43,253 bases of DNA from a virus. Its lineage: Duplodnaviria > Heunggongvirae > Uroviricota > Caudoviricetes. Position numbers and translations under genes: made by a program. Location: IMG/VR virus record IMGVR_UViG_2778261009_000005, positions 1 through 43,253 of that record, one strand, 5' to 3'. Every line of letters begins with the position of its first letter. Within the stretch, counting starts at the first letter, position 1. The notes under the pieces were generated by a model that was not told where the DNA came from, did not search any database, and worked only from the letters and a program-made list of their open reading frames with translations. Below are positions 2,718-19,585 of this stretch, in pieces.

Positions 2718-3026
2718 TTTCATCATGGAAGCTGTTAACGCTTTGGATCTTGCTGAACTGATTGAAAGGGCATTGTTTACCTTACCCAGGAGTTCGCCAA
2801 ATTCCACCATCACTCTAGTAAGCCCGCGCCGCGCTTCCTCCTCCGTTGCATTCATCACAAAATGTTCAGCACTCCGCATGCTTTTAACGGGGAACGCAAC
2901 AGATATCGAGTCGATATCAGGCATCCTATCGCTCAACTTTACGGTGACAATGACAGATGGTGACTGAATTTGAGAGCTTACAGACAGCACCACATATTTT
3001 CCGTCTATTTTGAAATCCTTCCGCAT
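2715..3026 (-). CDS. Hypothetical protein between cre and ref (cra position)
   Basis: 103-aa ORF preceded by a C1-operator-like site; no recognisable motif. Confidence 0.3.
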   Translation of the reverse strand: MRKDFKIDGKYVVLSVSSQIQSPSVIVTVKLSDRMPDIDSISVAFPVKSMRSAEHFVMNATEEEARRGLTRVMVEFGELLGKVNNALSISSARSKALTASMMK

Positions 3027-3042
3027 GTGTCACCATAAATAT

Positions 3043-3059
3043 CAAATAATTAGAGCAAT
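3043..3059 (-). promoter_or_regulatory. C1 operator-like site
   Basis: Minus strand ATTGCTCTAATTATTTG, 14/17 match to consensus. Confidence 0.5.
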
Positions 3060-3076
3060 CAGTTGCAAATAAACGG

Positions 3077-4108
3077 CTAATCGCCATCTTCCAGCAGGCG
3101 CACCATTGCCCCCGTTTCACTATCCAGGTTACGAATGTAGTTCATGACAATATTTACGTTGGTCCAGCCACCAGCTTGCATGATCTCCGGTATTGAAACT
3201 CCGGCGCGGGCCATATCTCGCGCGGCTCCGACACGGGCACTGTGTCCAGACCAGGCCAGGTATCTCTGACCAGAGTCATCCTTAGCGCCGTAAATCAATC
3301 GATGAGTTGCTTCAAAAATCCCTTCCAGGGCGCGAGTTGATAGCTGGCTGGTAGCAGATGGCGCGGCAACACCATTTTTTCTGACACGGCAAAACAAGTA
3401 GTTATTCGGATCATCAGCCACACCAGAGACAGAAATCCATCGCTCGACCAGTTTAGTTACCCCCAGGCTAAGTGCCTTCTCTACACCTGCGGTGCTAACC
3501 AGCGTTTTCGTTCTGCCAATATGGATTAACATTCTCCCACCGTCAGTACGTGAGATATCTTTAACCCTGATCCTGGCAATTTCGGCTATACGTAACAGGG
3601 TGTTATAAGCAATCCCCAGAAATGCCAGATTACGTATATCCTGGCAGCGATCGCTATTTTCCATGAGTGAACGAACCTGGTCGAAATCAGTGCGTTCGAA
3701 CGCCAGTGCCTGTTTTGCACGTTCACCGGCATCAACGTTTTCTTTTCGGATCCGTCGCATGACCAGTGAAACAGCATTACTGTCACTTGGTCGTGGCAGC
3801 CCGGACCGACGATGAAGCATGTTTAGCTGGCCCAAATGTTGCTGGATAGTTTTTACTGCCAGACCGCGCGCCTGAAGATATAGAAGATAATCGCGAACAT
3901 CTTCAGGTTCTGCGGGAAACCATTTCCGGTTATTCAACTTGCACCATGCCGCCCACGACCGGCAAACGGACAGAAGCATTTTCCAGGTATGCTCAGAAAA
4001 CGCCTGGCGATCCCTGAACATGTCCATCAGATTCTTGCGAACCTCATCACTCGTTGCATCGACCGGTAATGCAGGCAAATTTTGGTGTACGGTCAGTAAA
4101 TTGGACAT
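3077..4108 (-). CDS. cre: Cre site-specific recombinase (tyrosine recombinase)
   Basis: 343-aa ORF MSNLLTVHQNLPALPVDATSDEVRKNLMDMFRDRQAFSEHTWKMLLSVCRSWAAWCKLNNRKWFPAEPEDVRDYLLYLQARGLAVKTIQQHLGQLNMLHRRSGLPRPSDSNAVSLVMRRIRKENVDAGERAKQALAFERTDFDQVRSLMENSDRCQDIRNLAFLGIAYNTLLRIAEIARIRVKDISRTDGGRMLIHIGRTKTLVSTAGVEKALSLGVTKLVERWISVSGVADDPNNYLFCRVRKNGVAAPSATSQLSTRALEGIFEATHRLIYGAKDDSGQRYLAWSGHSARVGAARDMARAGVSIPEIMQAGGWTNVNIVMNYIRNLDSETGAMVRLLEDGD matches P1 Cre as remembered. Confidence 0.97.
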   Translation of the reverse strand: MSNLLTVHQNLPALPVDATSDEVRKNLMDMFRDRQAFSEHTWKMLLSVCRSWAAWCKLNNRKWFPAEPEDVRDYLLYLQARGLAVKTIQQHLGQLNMLHRRSGLPRPSDSNAVSLVMRRIRKENVDAGERAKQALAFERTDFDQVRSLMENSDRCQDIRNLAFLGIAYNTLLRIAEIARIRVKDISRTDGGRMLIHIGRTKTLVSTAGVEKALSLGVTKLVERWISVSGVADDPNNYLFCRVRKNGVAAPSATSQLSTRALEGIFEATHRLIYGAKDDSGQRYLAWSGHSARVGAARDMARAGVSIPEIMQAGGWTNVNIVMNYIRNLDSETGAMVRLLEDGD

Positions 4109-4430
4109 TTAACACTCAGATAATGGTTTTAAGTAAAGTGTACAGGATCGGCTCTGCCTTTACCTGTTTATGGTTCTCGTCATAGAAACGCCAGCGACCG
4201 CGCGTGCGTTCTATTTTTTCTTCACCGCGCGATAATGACAGTTGGCAACTATCACGATCAAACCCTTTTGCCCGCCAGTAACCACGGTTTTTCTCAAGCT
4301 CAAGATGAGTGGACACTTTAGCAGTTGAATATCCCATTTTTCACCTCTGATTGATTGGTGGTGCTAAGTGCGCTACGCGAAATCTGTAGGACTAACACCG
4401 CCAATTTTTCACAGATTTTACGTAGCGCAA

Positions 4431-10698: not shown

Positions 10699-11079
10699 CT
10701 ACTCCGCAGAACCATACAATCTACGTAACGTGTCGGCGACAGAAGATACAGATATCTCGCCAGTCGCAGCGCCTACAGTAAGGTCTGCCAGTTCAGGTGA
10801 ATCAAATACCTGCACCCCGTTACGGCGTAGAAATAGCAGCGCGCTGTTTAGCGCGGTACGCTTATTGGCATCATTGAATATATGCCCTCTCGCTGTAGCC
10901 ACCAGGTAGGTGGCGGAGACTTCGAAAAGGTCGGTGATCTCTTCGTAGGCAACTCTGGCCTGAACTCTCCCGATAATGGCCTCTGCCCTACCCGGATCTG
11001 ACATTCCCGGCAGGCCGCCGTAGCGGCTTATATTCGCATCATGAAGCGCAATAAGTTCTTCCGGTGATATATGCCTCAT
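10699..11079 (-). CDS. doc: Doc toxin (Fic-fold kinase) of the phd-doc addiction module
   Basis: 126-aa [28 protein letters not shown]...; start overlaps the phd stop. Confidence 0.93.
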
Positions 11080-11300
11080 TATCGGTTAACCAGTTCCTTG
11101 TTGGTGGAGTCCAGGGTGTCAAACAGGGATGCAAATTCAGCATCCAGCGCCGCTTTTTTGTAGGCTTCGAAAGTAGCCTTGCTGACAATTACTGCTGGCT
11201 CACGACCTCTGCGGGTGATTTCAACCTCTTCCCCGGCTTCAACATTGTTGAGCACTTCAGAAAGGTTGCCGCGCGCGGTACGGAAGTTAATGGATTGCAT
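11079..11300 (-). CDS. phd: Phd antitoxin
   Basis: 73-aa [76 protein letters not shown]. Confidence 0.93.
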
Positions 11301-11304
11301 AAAC

Positions 11305-11345
11305 ACCTCGTGTACTCGTTATGTGTACACAATTATAAACTTCAC
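11305..11345 (-). promoter_or_regulatory. phd-doc promoter/operator
   Basis: Minus strand TATAAT followed by palindromic GTGTACAC-type Phd-binding repeats directly upstream of the phd ATG. Confidence 0.6.
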
Positions 11346-11476
11346 AGGCATAAAGCACCAGCACTTTGCGGCTTAACAAACCTCTAGGCAGGTCATTCGT
11401 AGCCTAATGTCCGAACTGCTAAAGCATCCAAGTTGCTGTAGAATCACCGCCAATTACATAAGCCTGAAATAAGTGG

Positions 11477-13039
11477 ATGAAAATGACAAGTATTCAACAA
11501 CGTGCAGAGCTTCATCGTCAAATCTGGCAAATTGCTAACGATGTCAGGGGTTCGGTCGATGGATGGGATTTTAAGCAATACGTTCTGGGCGCACTTTTCT
11601 ACCGTTTTATCAGCGAAAATTTTTCCAGTTATATTGAAGCCGGTGATGACAGTATCTGTTATGCGAAACTGGATGACAGCGTAATTACTGATGACATTAA
11701 AGACGATGCCATCAAAACTAAAGGCTACTTCATCTACCCCAGTCAGCTTTTCTGCAACGTAGCTGCGAAAGCAAATACCAATGACAGACTGAACGCAGAT
11801 TTAAACAGCATCTTCGTTGCTATCGAAAGTTCTGCTTACGGCTACCCTTCAGAAGCAGACATCAAAGGTTTGTTTGCTGATTTCGATACCACCAGTAACC
11901 GCCTGGGTAACACCGTTAAAGATAAAAATGCCCGCCTGGCTGCGGTTCTGAAAGGGGTTGAAGGGTTAAAACTTGGTGACTTCAACGAACATCAGATTGA
12001 CCTGTTCGGTGATGCCTATGAGTTCCTGATTTCTAACTATGCGGCAAATGCCGGTAAGTCAGGCGGTGAGTTCTTTACACCGCAGCACGTCTCCAAGCTG
12101 ATTGCACAACTGGCTATGCACGGGCAGACCAACGTTAACAAAATCTACGACCCGGCAGCGGGTTCCGGCTCACTGTTGTTGCAGGCTAAAAAGCAGTTTG
12201 ATAACCATATCATCGAAGAAGGCTTTTTTGGTCAGGAAATCAACCATACAACCTATAACCTGGCACGTATGAACATGTTTTTGCACAACATCAACTACGA
12301 CAAGTTTGATATCAAGCTGGGTAATACACTGACTGAGCCACACTTCAGAGATGAAAAACCGTTTGATGCCATCGTTTCTAACCCGCCGTATTCGGTGAAA
12401 TGGATTGGCAGCGATGACCCGACGCTGATTAACGATGAACGTTTTGCCCCGGCTGGCGTCCTGGCCCCCAAATCCAAAGCTGACTTTGCGTTTGTACTAC
12501 ATGCGCTGAACTATCTTTCGGCCAAAGGTCGTGCTGCGATTGTCTGCTTCCCGGGTATTTTTTACCGTGGCGGCGCGGAGCAGAAAATCCGTCAGTATCT
12601 GGTCGATAATAACTATGTCGAAACCGTGATTTCACTGGCACCGAACCTGTTCTTTGGCACCACTATTGCTGTAAACATTCTGGTGCTGTCTAAACATAAA
12701 ACGGATACCAAAGTTCAGTTTATTGATGCCAGCGAACTGTTCAAAAAAGAAACCAACAACAATATCCTGACCGATGCCCATATCGAACAGATTATGCAGG
12801 TATTTGCCAGCAAGGAAGATGTTGCTCATCTGGCGAAATCTGTTGCGTTTGAGACTGTTGTCGCGAATGACTATAACCTGTCGGTGAGCAGCTATGTGGA
12901 AGCGAAAGATAACCGCGAAATTATCGATATCGGTGAGCTGAATGCAGAGCTGAAAACCACGGTCAGCAAAATCGACCAGTTGCGTAAAGATATTGATGCA
13001 ATTGTGGCTGAAATTGAAGGCTGCGAGGTGCAGAAATGA
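11477..13039 (+). CDS. hsdM: Type I restriction-modification methyltransferase subunit HsdM (N6-adenine)
   Basis: 520-aa [28 protein letters not shown]... with AdoMet motif and NPPY catalytic motif (VSNPPYS). Confidence 0.92.
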
Positions 13040-14241
13040 GCGAGATGAGTTATCTGGAAAAATTGCTGGATGGGGTTGAGGTTGAGTGGAAGACACTTGG
13101 GCAAACTTGCAAAATTGAAACAGGAAAGCTTAATGCGAATGCGGCTGTTGATGATGGAGAGTATATGTTCTTCACGACAGCCAAAGAGACAAGCAAAATT
13201 GATAAATTCCGCTGGGATACAGAGGCATTGCTGATTGCAGGCAATGCGAATGTTGGTGAGGTGAAGCATTACATCGGCAAGTTTGAGGCTTATCAGCGCA
13301 CCTATGTTCTGACAAATTTCGACGAAAATGTAAGTGTTAGATTTTTGTATTTTGTGCTTAGCCATAGCCTGAAGAAATATCTCGAGGAAAGAACAAATAG
13401 CGCGGCAATGACATATATCGTGCTATCAACCTTAGAGAATTTCCCTATCCCCATCCCCTGCCCGGATAATCCGGAAAAATCCCTTGCCATCCAGTCTGAA
13501 ATCGTTCGGATTCTGGATAAATTTACTGCACTTACCGCTGAGCTTACCGCTGAGCTTAACATGCGTAAAAAACAGTACAACTACTATCGCGACCAGTTGT
13601 TGAGTTTTAAAGATGGTGAGGTTGAGTGGAAGACTTTGGGGGAAATTGGAGATTTTACATATGGATATGCAGCCAAAGCCATGGATTCAGGAGATGCCCG
13701 TTTCGTGAGAATTACTGACATAAATAAAGACGGGAAGCTATCGAAAGAAAACCCAATGTACGTTGAATTAAATGAGGAAAATGAGAAATATACCTTAGAC
13801 AAAAATGATTTACTCATGGCAAGAACTGGGGCAACCTTTGGTAAAACAATGATTTTTGAAGAAGATTATCCAGCAGTATACGCTGGTTTTTTAATAAAGT
13901 TGAACCTAAATAAAACGATTATTAATGCCAAATATTACTGGCACTTTGCACAAAGTGATTTTTTTTGGGAACAGGCTAATAAATTAGTATCTGGTGGTGG
14001 GCAACCACAGTTTAATGCTAATGCACTGAAACAAGTCAGAGTACCTATTCCATACCCATCTCACCCTCAAAAATCTTTAGACGAACAGGGGCGTATTGTG
14101 GATATTCTGGATAAGTTTGATGCAATCACAGCTTCCATCACCGAAGGTCTCCCGCGTGAAATCGAGTTGCGCCAGAAACAATACGAGTACTATCGTGATT
14201 TACTGCTCAGTTTCCCAAAACCTGAAACTGTCAGTAATTAA
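13036..14241 (+). CDS. hsdS: Type I specificity subunit HsdS (Type IC, EcoR124-like)
   Basis: 401-aa ORF with two target-recognition domains each opening GEVEWKTLG, central TAELTAEL repeat and two conserved ILDKF...YYRD..LLSF regions; start overlaps the hsdM stop. Confidence 0.9.
13531..13557 (+). repeat. Tandem 12-bp repeat (ACCGCTGAGCTT x2, coding TAEL-TAEL) in hsdS central conserved region
   Basis: CTT-ACCGCTGAGCTT-ACCGCTGAGCTT-AAC read directly; the same repeat exists in EcoR124I/II hsdS, where copy number sets the recognition-site spacer length. Confidence 0.8.
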
Positions 14242-14362
14242 TTGACCATTATTACAGACCGGATCACCTTAACATCCGGTCTGTATATAGACTATTTTTT
14301 ACACGCCGGAAAGCACCCTTAACGCCCTTCCGGCCCTTGCCAGACGGCATAAAGGATGCGCT

Positions 14363-17300
14363 ATGACTCATCAGACACACACTATTGCTGAATCCAATAA
14401 CTTTATCGTCCTTGATAAGTACATCAACGCTGAGCCAACAGGCGACAGCTACCAGAGCGAATCGGACCTGGAACGTGAACTGATTCAGGACCTGCGGAAT
14501 CAGGGCTATGAATTTATATCCGTAAAATCTCAGTCGGCTATGCTGTCCAATGTTCGGGAACAGCTTCAGAGCCTCAATGGTGTGGTGTTTAATGACAGCG
14601 AGTGGCGGCGTTTCACGGAGCAGTATCTGGACAACCCGAGCGATGGCATTCTGGATAAGACCCGTAAAATCCATATCGACTATATTTGCGACTTTATTTT
14701 TGATGACGAGCGACTTGAGAACATCTATTTGATAGATAAAAAGAATCTCATGCGCAATAAGGTGCAGATTATCCAGCAGTTTGAACAGACGGGTTCTCAT
14801 GCTAACCGTTATGACGTCACGATCCTGGTTAATGGTTTACCGCTGGTGCAAATCGAACTAAAAAAACGCGGGGTGGCGATTCGTGAGGCTTTCAACCAGA
14901 TACATCGTTACAGTAAAGAGAGTTTTAACAGCGAAAATTCCCTGTTTAAGTATCTGCAACTGTTTGTCATTTCTAACGGCACCGATACCCGTTATTTTGC
15001 CAACACGACAAAGCGCGATAAAAACAGTTTTGACTTCACCATGAATTGGGCGAAATCAGACAACACGCTGATTAAAGACCTCAAAGACTTTACCGCTACC
15101 TTTTTCCAGAAACATACTCTGCTGAATGTTCTGGTGAACTACAGCGTTTTTGACAGTAGTCAGACGCTACTGGTGATGCGACCGTACCAGATTGCCGCCA
15201 CCGAGCGCATTCTGTGGAAAATTAAGAGTTCCTTTACAGCGAAGAACTGGTCAAAACCGGAAAGCGGTGGGTATATCTGGCACACTACCGGTTCTGGTAA
15301 AACCCTCACCAGCTTTAAAGCCGCGCGTCTGGCAACAGAGCTGGACTTTATTGATAAAGTCTTCTTTGTGGTCGACAGGAAAGACCTCGATTACCAGACC
15401 ATGAAGGAATATCAGCGTTTTTCGCCAGACAGCGTCAACGGCTCGGAAAATACCGCAGGCCTTAAACGAAATCTGGATAAGGACGATAACAAAATTATCG
15501 TCACTACTATTCAGAAACTTAATAACCTGATGAAAGCAGAAAGCGACCTGCCTGTATATAATCAGCAAGTGGTGTTTATATTTGATGAATGCCACCGCAG
15601 CCAGTTTGGAGAAGCGCAGAAAAACCTGAAGAAGAAATTCAAACGCTATTATCAGTTTGGTTTTACCGGCACACCTATTTTCCCGGAAAACGCCTTAGGC
15701 TCAGAAACGACCGCCAGCGTATTTGGTCGTGAATTGCATTCGTATGTAATTACCGATGCGATTCGTGATGAAAAAGTGCTCAAATTCAAGGTGGACTATA
15801 ACGATGTGCGGCCACAGTTTAAGTCTTTAGAGACAGAAACTGACGAGAAAAAACTAAGTGCGGCTGAAAATCAGCAGGCGTTTCTTCATCCCATGCGTAT
15901 ACAGGAAATTACGCAATATATTCTGAATAACTTCCGCCAGAAGACGCACCGTACTTTCCCTGGCGCAAAAGGTTTTAATGCTATGTTGGCAGTGAGCAGC
16001 GTGGATGCTGCAAAAGCCTATTACGCGGCGTTTAAACGGTTACAAGAGGAAGCCGCTAATAAATCTGCAACTTATAAACCGCTGCGTGTTGCGACAATCT
16101 TCTCCTTTGCCGCTAATGAAGAACAAAATGCCATTGGTGAAATTTCCGATGAAACTTTTGATACCAGCGCAATGGACAGCAGTGCTAAAGAGTTTCTTGA
16201 CGCTGCAATTCGTGAGTATAACAGCTATTTTAAAACTAACTTCAGCACCGACGGTAACGGTTTTCAGAACTACTATCGCGATTTAGCCCAACGGGTTAAA
16301 AATCAGGATATCGATCTGTTAATTGTCGTGGGGATGTTTTTAACTGGCTTCGATGCTCCAACATTGAACACGCTATTCGTCGATAAAAACCTGCGTTTTC
16401 ACGGCTTGATGCAGGCATTTTCCCGCACCAACCGTATTTATGATGCAACTAAAACCTTCGGTAATATCGTCACTTTCCGGGATCTGGAACGCTCAACTAT
16501 TGATGCCATAACGCTGTTTGGTGACAAAAACACCAAAAATGTGGTTTTAGAAAAGAGTTATGCAGAGTATATGGAAGGCTTTACTGATGCTGCCACTGGT
16601 GAAGCTAAGCGCGGCTTTATGGCAGTAGTTTCAGAACTGGAACAACGGTTCCCTGACCCTGCCAGTATTGAAAGTGAAAAAGAGAAGAAAGACTTCGTTA
16701 AACTGTTTGGTGAATACCTGCGTGCCGAGAACATCCTGCAAAACTATGATGAATTTGCCACGCTGAAAGCCCTGCAACAAATCGATCTTAGCGATCCTGT
16801 TGCGGTAGAAAAATTCAAAGCAGAACATTATGTGGATGATGAAAAGTTCGCTGAATTGCAAACGATTCGTCTCCCTGCTGAACGCAAGATTCAGGATTAT
16901 CGTTCTGCCTATAACGATATTCGTGACTGGCAGCGCCGCGAGAAAGAAGCTGATAAAAAAGAAAAATCAACCACTGACTGGGATGACGTGGTTTTTGAGG
17001 TCGATTTGCTGAAGTCTCAGGAAATAAACCTGGATTATATCCTTGGACTGATTTTCGAACACAACAGACAAAATAAAGGCAAGGGCGAAATGATCGAAGA
17101 GGTCAAACGCTTAATTCGTTCAAGCCTGGGGAACCGGGCGAAAGAGGGCCTGGTGGTCGATTTTATTCAGCAAACGAACCTGGATGATTTACCGGATAAA
17201 GCCAGCATCATTGACGCATTCTTTACGTTTGCTCAACGCGAACAGCAACGTGAAGCAGAAGCATTGATAAAAGAAGAAAATCTCAATGAAGATGCAGCAA

Positions 17301-17479
17301 AACGCTATATTCGCACGTCTTTAAAACGCGAATATGCCACCGAAAATGGCACAGAATTAAACGAAACATTACCAAAACTTAGTCCATTGAATCCGCAATA
17401 TAAAACGAAAAAACAGGCAGTTTTCCAGAAAATCGTCTCGTTTATTGAGAAGTTTAAAGGCGTAGGCGGAAAAATATAG
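14363..17479 (+). CDS. hsdR: Type I restriction endonuclease/translocase subunit HsdR
   Basis: 1038-aa ORF with helicase motifs TGSGKT and DECH and an N-terminal nuclease region; own ribosome-binding site AAAGGA. Confidence 0.92.
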
Positions 17480-17558
17480 CCCAATTCGTGTTTTTCTTGC
17501 GGGTTCTTAATTAAACCCGCAAGAGACCGTGGGGTTCCAAATGGCTAATATACTCCCC

Positions 17559-17645
17559 TTATCCATGAGCGACGATGCCGCCAAAAGTGATAGAGAACAA
17601 CCAGAAATAGATCGCGGCCATAATGATTTTGAATGCCGTGTTCAT
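17559..17645 (-). CDS. Candidate 28-aa hydrophobic peptide
   Basis: MNTAFKIIMAAIYFWLFSITFGGIVAHG with AGGAG 9 nt upstream of the ATG; below the ORF-track size cutoff; unverified. Confidence 0.3.
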   Translation of the reverse strand: MNTAFKIIMAAIYFWLFSITFGGIVAHG

Positions 17646-17673
17646 ATTTTCAGCTCCTGTGATTGATTGGATA

Positions 17674-17704
17674 CATGCCGCGCCTTGCGGCATGTTTTTA
17701 TTTT
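17674..17704 (+). terminator. Intrinsic terminator (plus strand) downstream of hsdR
   Basis: CATGCCGC-gcctt-GCGGCATG followed by TTTTTATTTT. Confidence 0.65.
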
Positions 17705-17727
17705 CACTTTCTCTGTTTTAAATATCA

Positions 17728-17744
17728 AGATTTATTAGAGCAAT
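17728..17744 (-). promoter_or_regulatory. C1 operator-like site
   Basis: Minus strand ATTGCTCTAATAAATCT, 16/17 match. Confidence 0.6.
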
Positions 17745-18250
17745 TATTGTTGATGAAGAAGCGTGTTTTCATACTCCATGACCATTAACGTAAGCACGCC
17801 GTGACGCCTGAAAACACGCGCCACTTCAATCTTATCTTCCAGCGCGAACGCAATTTTGCTTAGACCAATTTTCTTAAGGAGATCAATCTTTGCTGGACCG
17901 TCATTTCTGTCATCGGTGGCGGGACGCATAGATAGCAAAGGCTCTGCCCCGTTTGTTACGTACTTCCGCAGCCAGGCTCGTGTTTTATCCCTTGCGATCT
18001 CACAGCGCCCGGTTACAAACCAGACCGTGTAAACGTTAAATAACTGGCGCACCATATCAATAACTGGAGTGATGGGAGTATCGGTGTCACAGGCGAGATT
18101 AAACTCGTTCCAGTCCTTTGTTAATGCACCTTTACCTGGTGGCGGAAGCAAATGCAGTCTGTCTTCAGTTGCCTCTGATATTGTTCCATCAATATCAACT
18201 ATGACGATATACGGACGTTCCTGGTGTGCGTGTTTATTGAAAATACTCAA
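17744..18250 (-). CDS. HAD-superfamily phosphatase-like protein
   Basis: 168-aa ORF with DxDGT motif (IVIVDIDGTIS) typical of HAD/PNK-type phosphatases; TTG start with GAGGAGG ribosome-binding site. Confidence 0.5.
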   Translation of the reverse strand: MSIFNKHAHQERPYIVIVDIDGTISEATEDRLHLLPPPGKGALTKDWNEFNLACDTDTPITPVIDMVRQLFNVYTVWFVTGRCEIARDKTRAWLRKYVTNGAEPLLSMRPATDDRNDGPAKIDLLKKIGLSKIAFALEDKIEVARVFRRHGVLTLMVMEYENTLLHQQ

Positions 18251-18268
18251 ATGCCCTCCTCATTGGAC

Positions 18269-18303
18269 GAAAAAAATGCTGGTGGGCGCACTCCACCAGC
18301 ATT
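18269..18303 (-). terminator. Intrinsic terminator (minus strand) after the 420-aa gene
   Basis: 11-bp stem AATGCTGGTGG/CCACCAGCATT, followed on the minus strand by T6. Confidence 0.6.
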
Positions 18304-18322
18304 AAAAGTGACACTGTAACTG

Positions 18323-19585
18323 TCAGCGAACGTAAATAGTGCCGCCGTTCTCTTTTTCCCATGCATTGCTACGTGCATAGCAAACATCGAGAAGTCTTCT
18401 TGCCGCTGTTTCCTCTAAACCCAATTCGACAACCAACTGCTCATGACGGCGGGTAACCACATCAAACAGGGTATGCAGCCCTTTAGCTGCCAGATCATCA
18501 ATAAATTCCGGTTCGAACGGCAGCTCTGCATCTGCCAACATAACCTCTTGCGCCCACTCGACACGGCGGACCAGTTCCGGGCGGCGGCTTTCCATCTCTT
18601 TACAGATCAATTCATGGAAGAACTCTACCCAACCTTCCGGCTGGAACTCGCGGAAAATGGCCAGCGGCTGGAAGTTTGGCATCAACCATTCGTTGATTCG
18701 GATATCAATGGCATAGCCCATGTCGCAGCAGAACTGATAAGCAAAGTCCAGCTTAGAAACGATATAAGGACGCTCGTTATTGAACTCTTTAGGCGATGAG
18801 ATCCCATAAGCCAGGAGGCGCGGGAAGAAGGAGATTTGCCCTAACGTCGGATGAAGTTTGCTTGCAGGGAAACGGCGCTCAGTAATGCCATACATTTCCT
18901 TCTTGAGCGTCGCAAATTTGGCATTCTCATTAACCAGCGCGGTAACCTCTGCTTTTTTATTAGCAAATGCCACGCGCGCTTCGCTTGCATCTTTAATAGT
19001 TTTTTTGAGCTGTTGGTTAAGGTCGGCGACCTGCTTACGCAGTTCCTGTCGCTCGCTTTTAGCTTTGTTATAGCGTTTCTCAAGGTTAAAAGGATCAAGT
19101 TTCATGATCTCTTTATATTGAGATTTTAGCGTTGAAATCTGTGAGTTCCGCAGTTCAACCATCGCGGTCATTTCATTGAGTTTTGTTTCCAGCTCAATGC
19201 TTATACGTTCGGCATTATCAGCACGCTGGTTGGCGTCATGCGTCGCATCGTCGATCGCGTCCTGTTGCTGGCGTTTCAAATGTTCAATTTGCAGCTGAAG
19301 CTCTTCAATTTCTTTACCCTTCAGACCGAGATCCAACTGCATATTTTCAGCTGCATCTACCAGGGAGTTATGGCTATCAGCTTCTGCGTTATAAACATCA
19401 ATAAGCTGTGCGTGAAGCATCTCCGCTGACTGAACCGCATTATCAAAAAAACGTGCTGTGAGGTCATCACAACTAACGCGGCGTTGCGCGGCCCGGATGT
19501 TCTGGATAATGGCCGGGATACCGGCATTCAGGACATCAGGGATAGATACATTTTCGATTGATTGGTTTTGTGCTGAAGTGCTCAT
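18323..19585 (-). CDS. Hypothetical protein, coiled-coil N-terminal half plus C-terminal globular domain
   Basis: 420-aa ORF; heptad-rich region about residues 80-230; no nucleotide-binding motif recognised; start 1 nt after the stop of the upstream 72-aa ORF. Confidence 0.55.
   Translation of the reverse strand: MSTSAQNQSIENVSIPDVLNAGIPAIIQNIRAAQRRVSCDDLTARFFDNAVQSAEMLHAQLIDVYNAEADSHNSLVDAAENMQLDLGLKGKEIEELQLQIEHLKRQQQDAIDDATHDANQRADNAERISIELETKLNEMTAMVELRNSQISTLKSQYKEIMKLDPFNLEKRYNKAKSERQELRKQVADLNQQLKKTIKDASEARVAFANKKAEVTALVNENAKFATLKKEMYGITERRFPASKLHPTLGQISFFPRLLAYGISSPKEFNNERPYIVSKLDFAYQFCCDMGYAIDIRINEWLMPNFQPLAIFREFQPEGWVEFFHELICKEMESRRPELVRRVEWAQEVMLADAELPFEPEFIDDLAAKGLHTLFDVVTRRHEQLVVELGLEETAARRLLDVCYARSNAWEKENGGTIYVR

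Follow-up and report, generated by a model that had tools for sequence, protein, structure and literature searches.

The viral DNA analyzed here, a stretch of 43,253 nt from IMG/VR record IMGVR_UViG_2778261009_000005 that we refer to as the window, encodes a Type I specificity subunit, HsdS, whose gene holds two exact repeats within its reading frame: a tandem 12-bp unit encoding TAEL, and a pair of direct repeats at the starts of the two target-recognition domains (TRDs). An initial annotation proposed that both could allow the specificity of the enzyme to be switched, the first by altering the length of the target spacer and the second by providing homology for domain shuffling, and the question raised by this locus is whether either repeat acts in that way. 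We consider it very likely that the gene is an EcoR124-type hsdS in which the TAEL repeat sets the spacer and rarely changes, and in which the direct repeats, 18 bp in length, are remnants of an internal duplication and not a recombination site.

The open reading frame list and Pfam matches place hsdS within three co-directional genes on the plus strand:

11477..13039, plus strand: hsdM, Type IC methyltransferase subunit, 520 aa (Pfam N6_Mtase, 5.8e-121, and HsdM_N)
13036..14241, plus strand: hsdS, specificity subunit, 401 aa (Pfam Methylase_S, in two stretches)
14363..17479, plus strand: hsdR, Type IC restriction/translocase subunit, 1038 aa (Pfam EcoR124_C, T1R_D3-like, SWI2_SNF2 and HSDR_N)

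The order hsdM-hsdS-hsdR, with hsdR set off from hsdMS by a 121-nt spacer, is that of Type IC loci and is shared with the prototype of the type, EcoR124I/EcoR124II of plasmids R124 and R124/3; the stop codon of hsdM overlaps that of the hsdS start as ATGA at 13036-13039. HsdM matches the EcoR124 M protein (PDB 7bst_D) with 1159 bits over residues 1-520, and HsdR matches that of EcoR124I (PDB 2w00_A) with 2281 bits over residues 1-1038. Relatedness to Type IC is also evident from a natural EcoR124I-type locus (L006), to which HsdM is ~99% identical (99.4% of amino acids) and HsdR ~98% (98.2% over its first 792 aa), and cryo-EM and crystal structures exist for these 98-99% identical M and R subunits and for a homologous S subunit. 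Type IC families are defined by complementation, hybridization and sequence identity; judged here on sequence alone, the operon reads as a genuine Type IC (EcoR124 family) restriction-modification system with a different TRD pair, in which all of the defining features accessible to such a comparison are present.

HsdS aligns end to end with EcoR124 HsdS (PDB 7bst_A; E = 6e-75) and is identical to RefSeq WP_096313692.1, a protein carrying the generic name "restriction endonuclease subunit S"; a literature search found no published recognition sequence for this allele. Its layout is that of a Type IC subunit, with N-terminal, central and C-terminal conserved regions that are essentially those of EcoR124I and two TRDs that diverge from it:

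13036..13094, plus strand: N-terminal conserved segment of hsdS, 87-100% DNA identity to EcoR124I-type hsdS
13095..13454, plus strand: TRD1, low identity to EcoR124I-type and sibling alleles
13455..13634, plus strand: central conserved region (helix D1, coiled-coil spacer), ~100% DNA and 100% amino acid identity to EcoR124I-type hsdS
13635..14088, plus strand: TRD2, a widely shared module
14089..14241, plus strand: C-terminal conserved region (helix D2)

The identity, layout and homology of the gene are matters of direct observation. DNA identity to the EcoR124I-type gene drops below 50% after 13095, and well under half of the aligned residues are identical in both TRDs, so the target of the window system cannot be GAA N6 RTCG. 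TRD1 is found in 64 complete Escherichia coli records, and TRD2 is carried by 97. The initial annotation had set this gene beside EcoR124I, and alignment with EcoR124I hsdS bears out the assignment to Type IC: the central region is homologous to that of Type IC HsdS, matching EcoR124I HsdS residue for residue, and the EcoR124I-type gene holds the same 12-bp unit ACCGCTGAGCTT, also in two copies. In the window that unit, a hallmark of Type IC genes when placed in tandem within the central conserved helix, lies as follows:

13534..13557, plus strand: two tandem 12-bp units ACCGCTGAGCTT encoding TAEL-TAEL (copies at 13534-13545 and 13546-13557)

Tandem Repeats Finder reports the tract with a period of 12, 2.3 copies and 100% match over 13531-13558, and a degenerate unit, ACTGCACTT (T-A-L), stands directly 5' of the two TAEL units at 13525-13533. 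The 12-bp motif has no further occurrence on either strand of the 43-kb window, and the 24-mer is expected to match 0.00 times in shuffled sequence when two mismatches are allowed. The doubling of the unit inside the central region had been read correctly from the outset, and the rule that the initial annotation attached to it, an N6 spacer in EcoR124I against N7 in EcoR124II, agrees with the published account, in which two units correspond to GAA N6 RTCG and three units to GAA N7 RTCG (Loenen et al. 2014, PMC3874165). The interval between methylated positions is 7 nt with two units and 8 nt with three, and the change of unit number between the EcoR124 enzymes arises via unequal crossing-over at the 12-bp repeat in D1 (PMC3874165). 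Two further Type IC systems, EcoDXXI and EcoprrI, share family and spacer logic with the window and are set apart, by description, by three units, N7 spacers, an 8-nt methylation interval and other TRDs.

The target sequence of the window allele, and the effect that unit number would have in it, we infer from this precedent. Helices D1 and D2 would pair as an antiparallel coiled coil with TRD1 and TRD2 at its two ends, and the coiled coil would fix both the distance and the twist between the two DNA-reading domains. With two TAEL units, as in EcoR124I, the predicted outcome is methylation of adenines 7 nt apart, and an N6 spacer would follow, provided that the half-sites measure 3 and 4 bp. 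Being perfect, the 12-bp duplication would be open to slipped-strand mispairing or to unequal crossing-over, and each in-frame gain or loss of a unit would add or remove about one helical turn and, if the EcoR124I/II precedent holds, shift the spacer by 1 bp. The ILDKF and RKKQY anchors are 13 residues apart in D1, against 17 in the corresponding part of D2, so the two helices would become equal with a third TAEL unit. We propose that such a change in unit number would be a rare, heritable and evolutionary event and not a form of programmed switching.

Public copies of the window allele are almost uniform in unit number. Every one of the 51 complete E. coli records that share both TRDs has two units, in a search that included a synthetic three-unit query of the full gene; in a synthetic three-unit query made of the central region and TRD2, the ranking favored two-unit records with full coverage. 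Two units are likewise found in all 60 listed of the 64 complete E. coli records bearing TRD1, in three IMG/VR loci and in five metagenome loci, and no length difference of 12 nt is seen in the 28 PLSDB plasmids whose match spans at least 80% of the gene. At the protein level, the full-length members of a cluster of 209 are all 401 aa among those listed, and exact look-ups of a synthetic three-unit form for four common sequence variants returned no match in the protein collection. A one-unit version of one sequence variant does exist, in frame, on a pig-gut metagenome contig (P0135), and stands as a single observation from one contig beside ~70 other public copies of the allele, all with two units and some counted in two collections. 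The single unit is unlikely to stem from assembly collapse, since the repeat is far shorter than the assembler k-mer (k127 in the contig name), and the variant may be inactive.

Natural copy-number variants are also observed among the relatives of this allele. A chromosomal sibling allele sharing TRD2 is found as a three-unit form in two complete genomes and as a two-unit form in four others, and between APEC E19035 (three units) and 729_021014_1_4 (two units) the sole difference over 7.3 kb, a span running from the upstream flank through hsdM and hsdS and across most of hsdR, is the 12-bp unit. Both are chromosomes of poultry E. coli (NZ_CP160125, hsdS 3001-4287, with two units versus NZ_CP126926, hsdS 3001-4299, with three). 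A further three-unit strain is GPEC505-623. Relative to a two-unit database protein, P0124, the three-unit sibling HsdS has an extra TAEL unit and one other residue change, and in the pairs P0129/P0112 and P0134/P0116 one 4-aa unit, present once versus twice, is the sole difference. Higher numbers occur in one Type IC allele, which has five units beside an hsdM pseudogene in NZ_CP041452 (hsdS 423-1658) and four units in an IS3-truncated hsdS in NZ_CP073976 (remnant at 762-1646), the first unit carrying a synonymous substitution, GAA for GAG; these forms could reflect repeat expansion under relaxed selection. Sibling alleles with two, three, four or five units all use the same 12-bp unit. Across the family, the central region matches in 1277 of 5426 complete E. 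coli genomes (~24%), in up to six places per genome and with ~43% of the places on plasmids, and an evenly spaced sample of these Type IC genes comprised ~23 with three units, 29 with two and one with four, as inferred from alignment length only.

These counts bear on the possibility that the spacer is static, with two TAEL units fixed by selection and the forms with one, three, four or five units being neutral or defective accidents, a reading that we regard as unlikely, if arguable. It accounts well for the presence of two units in all but one copy of the window allele, for the decayed state of the loci with four and five units (the truncated hsdS and the hsdM pseudogene) and for the one-unit forms, each of which is a singleton, but it sits poorly with the ~40% of sampled E. 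coli Type IC genes that have three units and with a sibling pair in which hsdM, hsdS and hsdR are intact in both the two-unit and the three-unit state (four and two complete genomes, respectively). The published account also speaks against it: in EcoR124I/II, as in hybrids of EcoR124I and EcoDXXI, enzymes with two units and with three are active and differ in spacer (PMC3874165). The TAEL tract changes in nature in both directions, yet a single allele is almost monomorphic, a pattern that fits occasional slippage or unequal exchange and not phase variation. The proposal that the repeat is a switching element survives in part: its copy number does vary, both in the window allele (one unit) and among siblings (two versus three and one versus two), but the variation is rare.

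Among the 117 protein clusters sharing TRD2 (P0016-P0134), nearly all have two units, the exceptions being two clusters with one unit and one with TAELAAEL; set against the three-unit share family-wide, this makes unit number seem linked to TRD2 and to travel with it, as would be expected if the crossover in most TRD1 swaps lies upstream of the repeat. It is a distinctly doubtful extension of the argument that the tract, in Type IC systems of P1-like phage-plasmids and E. coli islands, is a slow contingency locus ranging beyond two to three units, with the one-unit forms of the window allele (pig-gut contig) and of its siblings being active enzymes with an N5-type spacer, and unit number linked to TRD2. 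Were the link to TRD2 true, each TRD swap would also import a spacer length.

The other repeat put forward as a basis for switching consists of two direct copies:

13077..13094, plus strand: direct repeat copy 1, TGAGGTTGAGTGGAAGAC, at the start of TRD1, encoding EVEWK and the first two bases of a T codon
13617..13634, plus strand: direct repeat copy 2, TGAGGTTGAGTGGAAGAC, at the boundary between the central region and TRD2

It had been described as a 17-mer, GAGGTTGAGTGGAAGAC, at 13078-13094 and 13618-13634; the placement at each TRD start is right, and the exact repeat is 18 nt. The copies are spaced 540 nt apart and in frame, the 18-mer has no further occurrence on either strand of the 43-kb window, and 0.01 matches are expected in shuffled sequence with two mismatches allowed. 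Past the 18-mer, synonymous differences start at the third base of the threonine codon. We propose that both copies represent the motif opening each TRD (EVEWK with part of the T codon) and derive from the internal duplication of hsdS. Together with a second repeat within the gene, 13510-13539 versus 14104-14133 at 80% identity, they mirror the two-fold internal repeat for which hsdS is known. Every family member read at the DNA level has the central copy of the 18-mer. The N-terminal copy, by contrast, is specific to this TRD1, and its match to the central copy, 18 nt in the window, does not exceed 9 nt in the EcoR124I-type gene or 6 nt in the sibling allele.

TRD exchange in this family gives the 18-mer no evident role. 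In 117 other protein clusters TRD2 recurs at 98-100% identity, coupled to ~30 TRD1 types, including EcoR124I's own TRD1 in P0114, and TRD1 is paired with another TRD2 in one further locus (L014). Exchange among Type IC alleles is, to judge from these combinations, rampant, and is possible without the 18-mer, as ~180 bp of central region and the 98-99% conserved hsdM and hsdR flanks are available for it. We suggest that it would proceed through long blocks, namely hsdM with the N-terminal segment, the ~180-bp central region, and the C-terminal region with hsdR. The suggestion of the initial annotation that the repeat supplies homology for domain shuffling is not supported, in that one copy is confined to this TRD1, yet TRD2 has been joined to so many partners, and in that direct repeats within one gene lead to deletion or duplication and not to shuffling, the predicted in-frame deletion having not been found among the genomes and proteins searched.

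That deletion is what recombination between the 18-bp repeats would produce. Loss of 540 bp in frame would leave a 666-bp allele with an intact ORF for a half-size HsdS of 221 aa, made up of the N-terminal segment, TRD2 and D2, which would dimerize and read a palindrome of the TRD2 half-site. The exactness, direct orientation and in-frame spacing of the repeats speak for this, and there is precedent for the product: the engineered and natural half-size Type IC subunits EcoR124I-delta50, EcoDXXI-deltaC, EcoDXXI-deltaN and NgoAV have one TRD and one helix and act as homodimers, N-terminally truncated forms are active in that state, and the engineered N-terminal truncation EcoDXXI-deltaN reads a palindrome (PMC3874165). 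The window gene, by contrast, is full length, and a 46-nt junction query found no exact deletion junction in 5426 complete E. coli genomes, its 13 near-matches being starts of full-length genes with a different TRD1. A degenerate junction pattern matched three IMG/VR loci, all of which have the TAEL pattern of an intact gene, with the junction pattern lying ~355 nt upstream of the TAEL-repeat match as it does in the intact gene, and an exact look-up among 15 billion proteins did not find the 221-aa product. In an otherwise identical allele (L013) the repeat is decaying by SNPs in its central copy. A length of 18 bp is also below the usual minimum for efficient RecA-dependent exchange. We therefore find it very improbable that the repeats recombine, and retain the reading in which they are relics of duplication.

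Programmed phase variation, in which a phasevarion or shufflon would switch specificity at high frequency, receives almost no credence from us and was rejected as a candidate, for although hsdS contains a tandem repeat and a tyrosine recombinase (Cre) is encoded elsewhere on the element, there is one hsdS and no silent hsdS cassette in the 43-kb window, the inverted repeats are short, weak and in no case significant, the repeat units number only two, public copies are almost invariant, and Cre is the lox-specific recombinase of P1. Known phase-variable Type I systems are alike in outcome, in that HsdS specificity is changed without new sequence, but they rely on multiple hsdS cassettes, inverted repeats, a dedicated recombinase or a long repeat tract, features that the window does not share; nor is the frequent variation typical of them seen in an allele with near-uniform two units and one single-unit contig.

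One further structure lies in the spacer between hsdS and hsdR:

14254..14284, plus strand: perfect 11-bp hairpin, ACAGACCGGAT...ATCCGGTCTGT, with a 9-nt loop

A T-run begins 14 nt after the stem, and other Type IC loci retain only the GACCGG/CCGGTC core of the hairpin. It could terminate or attenuate transcription between hsdMS and hsdR; general promoter and terminator scans gave site numbers not above those of shuffled sequence.

The carrier of the operon is a P1-like phage-plasmid, whereas that of the EcoR124I-type locus is an IncF plasmid. Neighboring genes are those of P1 (cre, c1, pacAB, phd-doc and a darB-like gene), the P1-like phages SJ46 and vB_EcoM-673R5 match the window at 96-98% identity, and plasmid pB39_p0111 is 100% identical to it over hsdS. 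Other phage-plasmids, pCRE1540 (NZ_CP019054) among them, are 99.4% identical. Annotation transferred from pB39_p0111 (window coordinate = locus coordinate minus 786) defines the left flank of the hsd cassette:

10699-11079, minus strand: doc, P1 addiction module
11079-11300, minus strand: phd, P1 addiction module

Compared with P1 itself (NC_005856, 78000-90500; L015), the cassette lies between phd-doc and pap-pmgS (window 10699-19585), in place of the P1 genes pmgT through humD. The P1 RefSeq record notes that these same flanks match DNA beside the hsd loci of EcoDXXI, which is flanked by P1-like sequence as the window operon is, and of R124/3, where P1 DNA lies downstream of hsdR in a neighborhood like that of the window. 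On the IncF plasmid with the EcoR124I-type hsdS, phd-doc also adjoins hsdM. Classic Type IC loci thus appear to sit in P1-derived DNA. A literature search on Type I systems in P1-like phage-plasmids yielded nothing usable.

There is little new biology in the locus as such: knowledge of the TAEL spacer mechanism dates from the late 1980s (for a review, see PMC3874165), and RefSeq already includes the protein; what the window shows is a Type IC cassette on a P1-like phage-plasmid, a setting already hinted at by the P1 RefSeq annotation. The greater value may lie in the public loci that are identical over 7.3 kb bar one TAEL unit, which constitute a ready-made natural test of the spacer rule. The half-site read by TRD2 is common to ~30 alleles, and methylomes of the isogenic two-unit and three-unit strains could reveal that half-site and test the molecular ruler outside EcoR124.

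Some minor observations concern the phage-plasmid and its relatives. ARAGORN identified four tRNA genes on the minus strand at 31024-33266, Met(CAT), Ser(TGA), Thr(TGT) and Asn(GTT), and the Rfam gathering score confirms three of the four, the exception being the 87-nt tRNA-Ser at 32562-32648. On a phage-plasmid from duck E. coli (NZ_CP141766.1, 48516-49720), hsdS is 1205 nt long instead of 1206; the single-base deletion is expected to shift its reading frame, and no CDS is listed there in PLSDB. The allele also extends beyond phage-plasmids, being shared by some chromosomes, and strain AH25 has it on both replicons.
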